Assembly (NCBI GenBank): GCA_951406725.2
Contig: OX597839.1
Location: 14,694,001-14,758,000, forward strand
From: Octopus vulgaris
Lineage: Eukaryota
Reading direction: 5' to 3'
DNA length: 64,000 nucleotides
Both the position numbers and the translations under genes were made by a program. This document shows positions 51,912-56,706 of the stretch, piece by piece (position 1 is the stretch's first letter; every line of letters begins with the position of its first letter). A model generated the notes under the pieces. That model did not search any database. It saw only the letters and a program-made list of their open reading frames with translations, and was not told the origin of the DNA.

Positions 51912-53757
51912 ATGTCAGAGGTCTGGTGAAACCCACTAATATGAGTAAAATTCCTTACCTTAGGGACTTAAGCACAAGCAACCATGCAATATGCATAGCG
52001 CTGACTGAAATGCACCTGTCAAGCAGTATAGCAGATGCAGAAATACACGTACCAAAGTATACTGTTTTTCGGTCAGACAGGAAGGAAAGAACTCATGGTG
52101 GGGTTGCCCTGTACGTCTGTGAAGATGTCACACCCATAGTACTGTTGACACACTCAAACTCAGTCTGTGACACACTGATAGTACACATGAAACAACCGAA
52201 AATAGTAATATGTGTCACATATCGGCCACCAGACACCCCTAGCCATGAAGGAGTGTTTGAAGATAGACTCAGAAGAATAGAAGAAGTCCTGGACAAACTG
52301 GACCAGGGTAACACCATTCTACTGCTGGGAGATTTTAACCTTCCGAAAGTCAAATGGCCAGATGGCCATCTCCTCCCTGGAATGACATCACTTGAACAGA
52401 GAGAGACAGAGTCCTTGTTGGCTCTCACACGCAAGTTTTTCATGGAACAAGCAGTGCTTCGGCCAACAAGAGGTGAGAATGTCTTGGACCTCTGTTTCAC
52501 AAGCAACCCGATGCTCATCCACAACATAATGGTAACACCAACAATTCTCTCAGATCACAACTTAGTAGAGGTAATGATATATGGTATGAGAGAGTTAGTT
52601 GAGACGCAGCCATTAGAAAATACCACAGGCCTATCCAGTCTAAACTTCCATAAGGCAAACTGGAAGAAGATCAACGAAGAGATCCGAAAACATGACTGGA
52701 GTGACTTCATCACCACACAAGACACCAACACACATTTCCAACATTTCATGACAACAATACAGAACATATGCCATAAGTTTGTCCCGGAGAAAAAAGCCAG
52801 CGGGCATAGGAACGTTATTCCCAGAGACAGGAAAATACTTATGAGGCGAAGAGCTAAGTTCTCGAAGCAACTGAATGCACGGCAGAGAAACAATGAGGGA
52901 CTCCACCTGAAACTTTTTGAAACGGAAACTGCACTCAAAGTTTCCTATGAGAAGGAGAGGGCAGAGAGAGAAGCCAGGGCCATAGAGAATATTAAAACAA
53001 ACCCTAAAGCCTTCTTTAAATTTGCGAAAGAAACCACCTCGGTACACTGCAAGATTGGCCCACTCTTTGATAAAAAGGGCTCTCTAACTGAGGACCCCCA
53101 AGGGATAAGTGAAATACTAAAGGAACAGTATAAAAGTGTGTTCACATCCCCTCTGGGGCACATGCAAATCACAAACCCAGAAGTTTTCTTTGATGCCACA
53201 ACACTCCAAAACCAAACAACAACCATCGACCACATAGACATAACAGAGAGGGATGTAATATCTGCCATAGAAGAAATGAGAATAAACTCAGCTGCTGGAC
53301 CAGATGGATTCCCAGCAGTCCTCCTAAAAACATGCAGGCATGCCCTAGCGGGACCACTGACGGAGTTCTTCAGTGGTTCCTTGGCTAACGGTAAACTGCC
53401 CAGGGCGCAAAATGAAGGCACCATATGCCCTATCCACAAAGGAGGGAGTAGAGCAGAGGCCAAGAACTACAGGCCAGTCTCCCTGACGTCACACATAAGT
53501 AAGGTCATGGAACGAATCATCAGAAAAAAACTGATCACGTTCCTCGAAGAAACTAACCGTCTCACTGACACACAGCATGGCTTTCGCCCAGGAAGAAGCT
53601 GCCTTACGCAGCTGTTACAACACTACGACTGGGTACTGAAACAACTACTGGATCGCTCACAGGTGGATGTGGTATATCTCGACTTTGCGAAGGCGTTTGA
53701 CAAAGTCGACCACGGAGTGATATGTCACAAATTACTCAGACTCGGCATAACAGGAAA
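51830..53757 (+). pseudogene. LINE B ORF2, 5' part (APE endonuclease, linker, RT N-half)
   Basis: [46 protein letters not shown]; runs into the TA tract. Confidence 0.92.
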
Positions 53758-55573
53758 CATATATATATACATATATATATATATATATACATATATATAT
53801 ATACATATATATATATATACATATATATATATACATATATATATACATGTATACATATATATATACATATATATATATACATATACATATATATATATAC
53901 ATATATATATACACATATATATATACATATATATATACATGTATACATATATATATATACATATATATATATATATATACATATATACATATATATATAT
54001 ATACATATATATACATATATATATATATACATATATATATACATATATATATATATACATATATATATACATATATATATATATACATATATATACATAT
54101 ATATATATACATATATATATATACATATATATATATACATATATATATATACATACATATATATATACATACATATATATATATATATATATACATATAT
54201 ATATACATATATATATATATATATATATATGTACATATATATATACATATACATATGTATATATACATATATATATACATATATATATACATATGTATAT
54301 ATATATATATACATATATATATACATATGTATATATATATATATATACATATATATATACATATATATATACATATATATATACATATATATATACATAT
54401 ATATATATACATATATATATACATATATATATACACATATATATACATATATATATATACACATATATATATATATATATATATATATATATATATATAT
54501 ATATATATATATATATACATATATATATACATATATATATATACATATATATACATATATATATATATATACATATATATATATACATATATATATATAT
54601 ATATACATATATATATATATATATACATATATATATATACATACATATATATATATATATATATACATATATATATACATATATATATACATATATATAT
54701 ATACATATATATATATATATACATATATATATATACATATATATATATATATATATATATACATATATATATATACATATATATATACATATATATATAT
54801 ATATATATATATACATATATATATATATACATATATATATACATATATATATATATATATATATATATATATATATATATACATATATACATATATATAC
54901 ATATATATATATACATACATATATATATATATATATATATACATATATATATACATATATATATACATATATATATACATATATATATACATATATATAT
55001 ACATATATATATATACATATATATATACATACATATATATACATACATATATATACATACATATATATACATACATATATATACATACATATATATATAC
55101 ATATATATATACATATATATATATACATATATATATACATATATATATATATATATATATATATATATATATATATACATATATATATACATATATATAT
55201 ATACATATATATATACATATATATATATATATATATATATATATATATATATATATATATATATATATATATATATATATATATATATATATATATATAT
55301 ATATATATATATATATATATATATATATATATATATATATATATATATATATATATATATATATATATATATATACATATATATATACATATATATATAC
55401 ATATATATATATACATATATATATAAACATATATATATAAACATATATATATATATATATACACATATATATATATACATATATATATATACATATATAT
55501 ATATATATATACATATATATACATATGTATATGTATATGTATATATATATATATACATATGTATATATATATG
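53758..55573. repeat. 1.8-kb (TA)n/(TACA) tract flanked by a 37-bp direct repeat
   Basis: TATGTCACAAATTACTCAGACTCGGCATAACAGGAAA at 53721-53757 and 55574-55610. Confidence 0.95.
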
Positions 55574-56706
55574 TATGTCACAAATTACTCAGACTCGGCA
55601 TAACAGGAAAAGTAGGTGAGTGGATACATGACTTCCTGTAGGACAGAAGCCAGATGGTTGCAGCCAATGGAGCCCTCTCGGGAAAGACACCAATAGCAAG
55701 CGGGGTGCCACAGGGCACAGTCTTGGGACCCTCGCTGTTTTTGGTGGCGCTCTCTGACATGCCCTTGGTAGCACAAACAACATCCCTCACTAGCTATGCT
55801 GATGACACAAAGGTAGCACAGGCAATCAAAAACCCAGCTGATGCTGACCTTTTACAACAAGATCTGGATGCCATATACAAATGGGCTGAAGACAACAACA
55901 TGCAATTTAATGCTGGTAAATTTCAAGCCTTACAATATCAAGCTGTAAACACATATACATTACAACACAACTATACTGGTCCAGGAGGGATCGAAATCCC
56001 AGTATCGAAATCAATACGGGACCTGGGGATAGACATGAGTGATGATGCATCTTTTTCTTCACACATCGCGAAGGTGGCGACAATGTGCAGACAACTCACT
56101 GACTGGATCCTGAGGACATTCCGGACAAGAGACTGCGAGACCATGTTGACACTATGGAGGACATTTGTCCTAAGCCGCCTGGACTACTGCTCCCAACTGT
56201 GGTCACCGCATAGTGTCAAACTAACCACAGAGCTTGAGACAATCCAAAGACATTTCACCAAGAAGATTTCCACCATGAAAGAAAAGAACTATTGGGAGAG
56301 GCTTAGGGAACTCAATTTGTACTCCTTGGAACGAAGACGAGAGAGATATGCAGCGATATACATATGGAAAATCCTGGAGGGACTAGCACCAAATTTTGGA
56401 ATTGAGAGCTGTTCCAATCCCTGTACAGGACGTCACTGTGTGGTGCCAAAGGTCCCGTCTTCCACATCCAGGGTAAGGAGCAGATACTGTATTAGCCTGG
56501 GGTTCAGGGGCCCTCAGCTGTTCAACAAACTGCCAAGAAAACTAAGAGATCTACATGATGCGGATGTGGACATTTTCAAAAAACATCTAGACAAGCTGCT
56601 TTCCGGGATCCCAGATGAACCCACTGCAAGGTACGAAGGTAACCTAAGGGCAGCAGCTACAAACTCTCTCTTAGATCAGTGGCCAGCCACGGCAAACTGG
56701 ACTTAG
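55574..56706 (+). pseudogene. LINE B ORF2, 3' part (RT C-half and C-terminus)
   Basis: [25 protein letters not shown]; in-frame TAG at ~55639. Confidence 0.92.

Follow-up and report, generated by a model that had tools for sequence, protein, structure and literature searches.

Transposable elements (TEs) that are interrupted by foreign DNA, with collinear halves and no poly(A), have been described as repair-mediated duplications (PMC2671141). The cases reported there show 2-9-nt microhomology, sometimes a target-site duplication (TSD), and a donor that usually lies within 5 kb: Pace et al. (2009, PMC2671141) counted 824 of 1,136 cases in which the interrupting DNA had been copied from within that distance, and found 5 of the 39 proximal cases to combine microhomology with a TSD. 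MMBIR and polymerase-theta templated insertion likewise switch templates on microhomology, of 2-5 nt (PMC7407515); these systems were described in yeast, worm, fly and cancer cells, and the octopus case presented here may resemble them. TA repeats are break hotspots whose repair by MMEJ leaves small duplications (PMC13645644), a further point of likeness with the TA arrays of this locus.

LINEs and microsatellites are connected in other ways. The APE-type LINEs Waldo, Mino, Koshi and Dong target microsatellites, and both such LINEs and the birth of microsatellites from LINE tails are already known (PMC3812793). Similarly, the LINEs studied here sit in microsatellite; the targets listed for the four elements are ACAY, AC, TC and TAA (PMC3812793), compared with TA at this locus, where moreover a microsatellite lies inside a LINE. 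LINEs are known to become 5'-truncated by microhomology (PMC2912911), and those studied here join the arrays in this manner at their truncated 5' ends. Short interstitial telomeric insertions resemble the present case in that a simple repeat is inserted de novo at a double-strand break; unlike it, they are telomerase-dependent and consist of TTAGGG (PMC6410037). The simple repeat at our locus is built of TA and CA units. We know of no telomerase-like enzyme for TA repeats.

The window, which is the whole stretch of 64,000 nucleotides of Octopus vulgaris DNA that was analysed, contains a copy of a LINE (LINE B) whose ORF2 is divided by a 1816-bp TA/CA tract lying directly between two exact copies of a 37-bp direct repeat. 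The pattern is real in the sequence; it is a single case, known from the assembly alone, for which the likeliest origins are a repair event of known type, leaving a scar, and an error of assembly. With repair-mediated duplications it shares collinear halves of the same family and junction microhomology without a tail. It differs from them in that the insert is a microsatellite, whereas the search of Pace et al. required a unique donor (PMC2671141), and in that both the insert (1816 bp against at most 619 bp in the proximal cases) and the repeat (37 bp against TSDs of 4-21 nt) exceed the ranges given in PMC2671141. The 37-bp overlap falls just outside the +/-30 bp window used in that original search (PMC2671141). 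The locus can thus be said to work like a repair-mediated duplication, and is not classed as one because none of 16 donor comparisons rose above shuffles, although the composition of the tract matches the nearest arrays, and because neither its insert size nor the length of its repeat falls within what has been published. In the open literature that we searched, no title or abstract opening describes a kilobase TA tract inserted between repeats of 30-40 bp.

Organization of the divided LINE

The features of the locus are as follows (coordinates are those of the window):
49400..50900, unstranded: mosaic of reverse family-A LINE, TA sequence and LINE 5' UTR, column-wise, read as a consensus artefact
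50880..53757, + strand: 5' half of LINE family B, comprising the end of the 5' UTR, ORF1, APE endonuclease and the first half of RT (Pfam Exo_endo_phos_2, RVT_1 1-96)
near 51237, + strand: local frameshift in ORF1 of LINE B
53721..53757, + strand: left copy of the 37-bp repeat, starting in the ATATGT seed and ending in AAA
53758..55573, unstranded: TA/CA array inside LINE B, 1816 bp, in phase, with recurrent composite variants
55424..55449, unstranded: two AA-variant units in the tract, with possible 2-3-nt microhomology to the left junction
55514..55578, unstranded: TG-rich right edge of the tract running into the 5-nt LINE microhomology
55574..55610, + strand: right copy of the 37-bp repeat
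55574..56781, + strand: 3' half of LINE family B, comprising the rest of RT, the stop at 55639-55641, a 354-codon open frame and a short tandem tail
56782..57132, unstranded: TA/CA array at the 3' end of LINE B, candidate local source, with the same polarity as the inserted tract and similar C density (Fisher p=0.3)

The preliminary description had reported exact 37-bp repeats on either side of the tract, and self-BLAST of the window bears this out at E=1.4e-11, far beyond chance. It had also held that the halves become collinear with family A once the tract and one repeat copy are removed. They do: left and right halves make up one APE-RT LINE ORF2 of the same family and orientation, in register and with foreign DNA between them, and both follow the family-A ORF2, to which LINE B is about 67% identical. 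The tract divides the Pfam RVT_1 profile into positions 1-96 on the left and 107-193 on the right. Among the 15 TA tracts of the window that were tested, only this one has a direct repeat of more than 7 bp in the 80 bp on either side.

Two features were absent from the preliminary description. One is the mosaic consensus 3 kb upstream; the other is an in-frame TAG at 55639-55641, after HDFL in the right half, where contigs of two public runs have A and the window has T. Because of this stop, the LINE B copy is broken independently of the tract. Within ORF1, the 17 nt at 51181-51197 have given way to an equally long copy of sequence from about 27 nt upstream, and the contigs of two runs differ there.

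Composition and age of the TA/CA tract

Described at first as pure TA/TACA, the tract turns out to be more varied: its 908 dinucleotides comprise 773 TA, 122 CA, 11 TG and 2 AA, in one unbroken phase and without LINE fragments. Variant units thus make up 135 of 908 (15%), compared with about 1% divergence of the surrounding LINE. Composite variants recur, with one 14-mer present twice at a spacing of 92 bp, one 24-mer in four overlapping copies at 14-bp intervals and one 10-mer five times. When the tract is written as a run-length code, its longest repeat is 7 (self-overlapping), against at most 6 in 200 shuffles. Since its variant units are so much more frequent than the differences in the LINE and its composite variants recur, the tract appears older than its position. 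It looks like an aged, internally duplicated array, either copied in or already there, and not like fresh polymerase stutter. The notion that it is single-read noise is weakened by the perfect phase, the recurrent motifs and a clean hairpin nearby.

The tract resembles its neighbours. Its C density matches that of the three nearest downstream arrays and of one array at 35 kb (Fisher p 0.3-1.0), and is borderline against one array; of the 9 arrays at 38-48 kb, 4 depart from it (p<=0.005). As in the neighbouring arrays, the C lies on the + strand. The same polarity is seen throughout 35417-59760: almost every TA array there carries its C interruptions on the + strand (274:13), irrespective of how the neighbouring LINE is oriented. 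This polarity may reflect one ancestral array or a strand-specific sequencing error; a platform error would weaken the argument for an aged array, and our literature searches yielded no direct paper on a platform cause. The arrays of similar composition in the window measure 167-811 bp and are all shorter than the tract. A donor search with the run-length code (8 tracts, both orientations) gave 0 of 16 comparisons above shuffles.

The intact family form in independent contigs

The segment 50880-53777, which covers the 5' half and 20 bases of the tract, was compared with contigs of four (X1, X13, X16 and X19) of 24 public runs. All 24 are represented by assembled contigs, the best of which contain 0.67-0.74 of the query words; such contigs show presence only, and rare variants get dropped in them. 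In contigs of X1 and X19 the LINE continues to 53757 and is followed directly by the sequence that in the window comes after the right repeat, so that the intact family form, with a single 37-bp copy, is present in two of the four runs. The X13 contig stops at 53757 with 6 letters spare, and X16 has short related pieces only. None of the listed contigs of the four runs contains the left junction or any passage into TA, a result that concerns contigs proving presence and not absence. The X1 family contig differs from the 5' half of LINE B at 22 positions, without gaps, over 2366 bp (about 1%). The LINE B copy is young.

Because the intact family form has one copy of the 37-bp repeat, the split state in the window is derived and did not arise by slippage of a TA run at the site. 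The earlier statement that the site offers no TA run for slippage needs the qualification that a short alternating seed, ATATGT, is present exactly at the 5' edge of the 37-bp repeat. It falls below the slippage threshold of 4-5 units given in PMC3812793.

Junctions of the tract

At the right junction, the TG-rich edge of the tract runs into a 5-nt match with the LINE, so that the ATATGT seed forms the microhomology of this junction; the 5-mer occurs twice in 3969 bp of LINE B. Five of the 11 TG units lie in the last 60 bp of the tract (hypergeometric P=1.1e-5, for a window chosen post hoc). The other 5'-truncated LINE copies in the window that have family sequence for comparison, two of two, join their arrays by microhomology in the same way (4 and 7 nt); the right half by itself is thus an ordinary 5'-truncated LINE in a TA array. 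What is unusual about the structure is confined to the left junction. No LINE tail, poly(A) or 3' UTR occurs at the left end of the tract. An 11-nt motif at this junction is found in three places in the window, namely the junction itself and twice inside the tract, and microhomology of 2-3 nt is possible there, as a conjecture. Both junctions are sharp, unlike the mosaic at 49.4-50.9 kb.

The LINE cluster and its neighbourhood

LINE copies of three families, their 3' ends adjoining TA arrays, are clustered between 35 and 64 kb of the window. At least seven copies, from all three families, lie within 35417-60000, and the 3' tail of each borders a TA array. LINE B may be CR1/L2-like. The element treated in PMC9115989 is an RTE element. 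The cluster suggests a TA-nesting LINE lineage, with a target that is absent from the list in PMC3812793. The best match in a protein search was unnamed, at 62% identity, and the nearest named one was from the octopod Argonauta hians, at 53%; the search returned no full-length family-B protein with which the ages of the two halves could be compared. A metagenome search gave 12 loci at 33-61% identity, too distant for use, and a 19-nt piece of the 37-bp repeat had 0 matches in viral contigs.

Several other structures were observed in the window. A near-perfect inverted duplication at 57133-57620, with 234-bp arms, 4 mismatches and a short loop, starts exactly at the end of a TA array, and further palindromes are found at 7935-8193, 675-1034 and 48373-48480. 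A second column-wise mosaic, of LINE with TA and LINE 5' UTR, lies at 47441-48100; it was judged by eye and is read as a consensus artefact. An AT-rich higher-order satellite (40551-41578; periods 48, 78, 87, 102, 122 and 174) immediately precedes a full-length LINE. The full-length family-A copy at 41.6-45.4 kb has internal deletions at 44446 and 44596 (28 bp and about 165 bp), the larger of which sits at short microhomology. At 36227-36251, between a TA array and a 5'-truncated family-A copy, a (GA)12 run continues the LINE's own AGAGAGA, which suggests microhomology or RT stutter at a 5' junction. The family-A copy at 60201-64000, which may have been active recently, has an ORF1 and an ORF2, the latter aligning without frameshift to the end of the window.

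Origin of the insertion

The weights given below to the preferred reading and to its rivals are judgements and were not computed. Our tentative first choice is a microhomology-guided template switch during repair, by which local array DNA was copied into LINE B and 37 nt were copied again. The setting would be break or fork repair in a resident LINE-B copy, with the break, the polymerase and the donor all presumed. The nascent end would have halted after ...GGAAA in the LINE and then annealed as a primer to an array close by, perhaps at an AA-variant unit; a host polymerase would then have copied array DNA in direct orientation, and slippage may have lengthened the product later. The end, now in TATGT, would have re-annealed at the ATATGT of the LINE, 37 nt behind the switch, so that those bases were copied twice; the microhomology at this step is observed. 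If so, and we hold this with the same reserve, the 37-bp repeat would be a repair scar and not an endonuclease TSD, and the array a template and not a mobile element. The derived state, the microhomology at the right junction and the local resemblance of the tract are in keeping with a template switch, as are the sharp junctions and the left-junction motif that recurs only inside the tract. Against it count the lengths of insert and repeat, both beyond published ranges, the donor comparisons that failed to rise above shuffles, the shortness of the similar arrays in the window, a left junction missing from the listed contigs of the four runs, a conjectural left microhomology of only 2-3 nt and the mosaic consensus 3 kb upstream. 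Of the three routes of insertion first proposed, templated break repair is the best reading; reiterative RT synthesis is unsupported because the tract is aged, internally duplicated and similar to its neighbours.

A mis-join in the assembly is almost as likely as the template switch. Reads from full-length LINE B would have been merged with reads in which a TA array is followed by a 5'-truncated B copy starting at the microhomology, and the consensus path would have left the first read population 37 nt too late, giving a pseudo-TSD; in a weaker form, the insertion is real and the duplication was painted in by polishing. What makes this a strong rival is that read merging would explain both junctions. 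The right junction matches in type the ordinary 5'-truncation junctions of the window (two of two that could be tested), and the left one is absent from the listed contigs. Consensus artefacts are also close at hand, for we read as such both the 17-nt same-length replacement by neighbouring sequence at 51181-51197 and the column-wise mosaic of reverse LINE A with TA and LINE 5' UTR at 49.4-50.9 kb, where alignments of the reverse A copy contain 17-21 gap events in 620-785 columns, compared with 2-3 per about 2000 for the forward copy A1 against A2 and A3. Polishers are reported to switch haplotypes and over-correct repeats (bioRxiv 2021.07.02.450803), and nanopore accuracy to fall in inverted duplications (PMC7229812), both of which count for a mis-join. 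However, there are 0 gaps in the 2366 bp up to the junction and an intact 354-codon frame after it, the 234-bp hairpin 1.5 kb downstream has 4 mismatches and no gap, and the tract is free of phase shifts and LINE relics. By reasoning alone, an optimal alignment should not overshoot a perfect match by 37 nt.

Two further explanations turn on the LINE machinery. That a TA-targeting LINE machinery moves array sequence, either by carrying TA/CA read-through RNA into minimal ATAT sites with a 30-40-bp duplication or by priming one RNA twice in one array so that two collinear pieces result, is on the whole rather doubtful. In the second form, which we consider unlikely, the TA array was the target and a single LINE-B RNP made two nicks in one long array: the first target-primed reverse transcription (TPRT) ended by microhomology at ATATGT, as in a normal 5' truncation, and the remainder of the RNA, ending about 37 nt 3' of ATATGT, was primed at a second nick 1.8 kb upstream; as a variant, the RT jumped onto array DNA and then back onto the RNA. 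No donor is needed here, as the polarity and density of the tract match those of the flanking arrays; every LINE 3' end seen at 35-60 kb adjoins a TA array, the right junction is a canonical truncation junction, and L1 and R2 provide known examples of twin priming and template jumping (PMC2912911). Yet twin priming yields an inverted 5' part, same-orientation double priming was not found in our literature search, and the case is single: none of the window's remaining LINE copies is split. Less probable again is TPRT of a (UA/CA)n RNA, in which a TA-preferring endonuclease nicked the ATAT site of the LINE and read-through RNA was copied in with a 32-37-bp TSD, in the manner of an orphan 3' transduction. 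The 37-bp repeat is single-copy in the intact family form, and read-through from + strand LINEs would give C-rich RNA, which is the polarity seen; the start of the repeat in ATAT fits an apparent TA target preference but fits microhomology equally. On the other side, no LINE tail or 3' UTR stands at the left end of the tract, 37 bp is well above the 14-16 bp at which L1 TSDs peak (PMC2912911), an RNA from anywhere need not resemble the local arrays as the tract does, and nothing recurs among the other tracts in the window (1 of 15). The preliminary proposal that TA arrays are themselves mobile fares poorly on these counts: it concerns one tract in 15, which shows neither an RNA signature nor a LINE tail at its left end and for which no donor was found. 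Least probable of all are coincidence, in which two independent LINE-B copies, one 3'-broken and one 5'-truncated, flank an old array and happen to overlap by 37 bp, and de novo growth of the tract from the ATAT seed through slippage or RT stutter. Taken by itself the right half is indeed an ordinary truncated copy, and another 5' junction carries the (GA)12 run at 36227-36251. But by our own estimate the chance of an overlap this close in an element of about 5.8 kb is about 1-2%, wherever the window shows the 3' end of one of the other family-A copies, forward or reverse, its tail is still present, and stutter explains neither the 135 variant units with their recurrent motifs nor the duplication.

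Implications

If the structure is a mis-join, it is a warning of pseudo-TSDs in TA/LINE clusters of long-read assemblies. As a repair scar, the reading we tentatively prefer, it would add a further example of an established process, and only the use of a kilobase microsatellite as template would make it notable; repair of this kind would give long TA arrays a route to new sites without slippage from a seed. Should retrotransposition of array RNA prove true, new landing pads would be seeded for the LINE's own family. And if the LINE machinery is responsible, TA arrays and TA-nesting LINEs would form a feedback loop, which could help explain TA-rich animal genomes.
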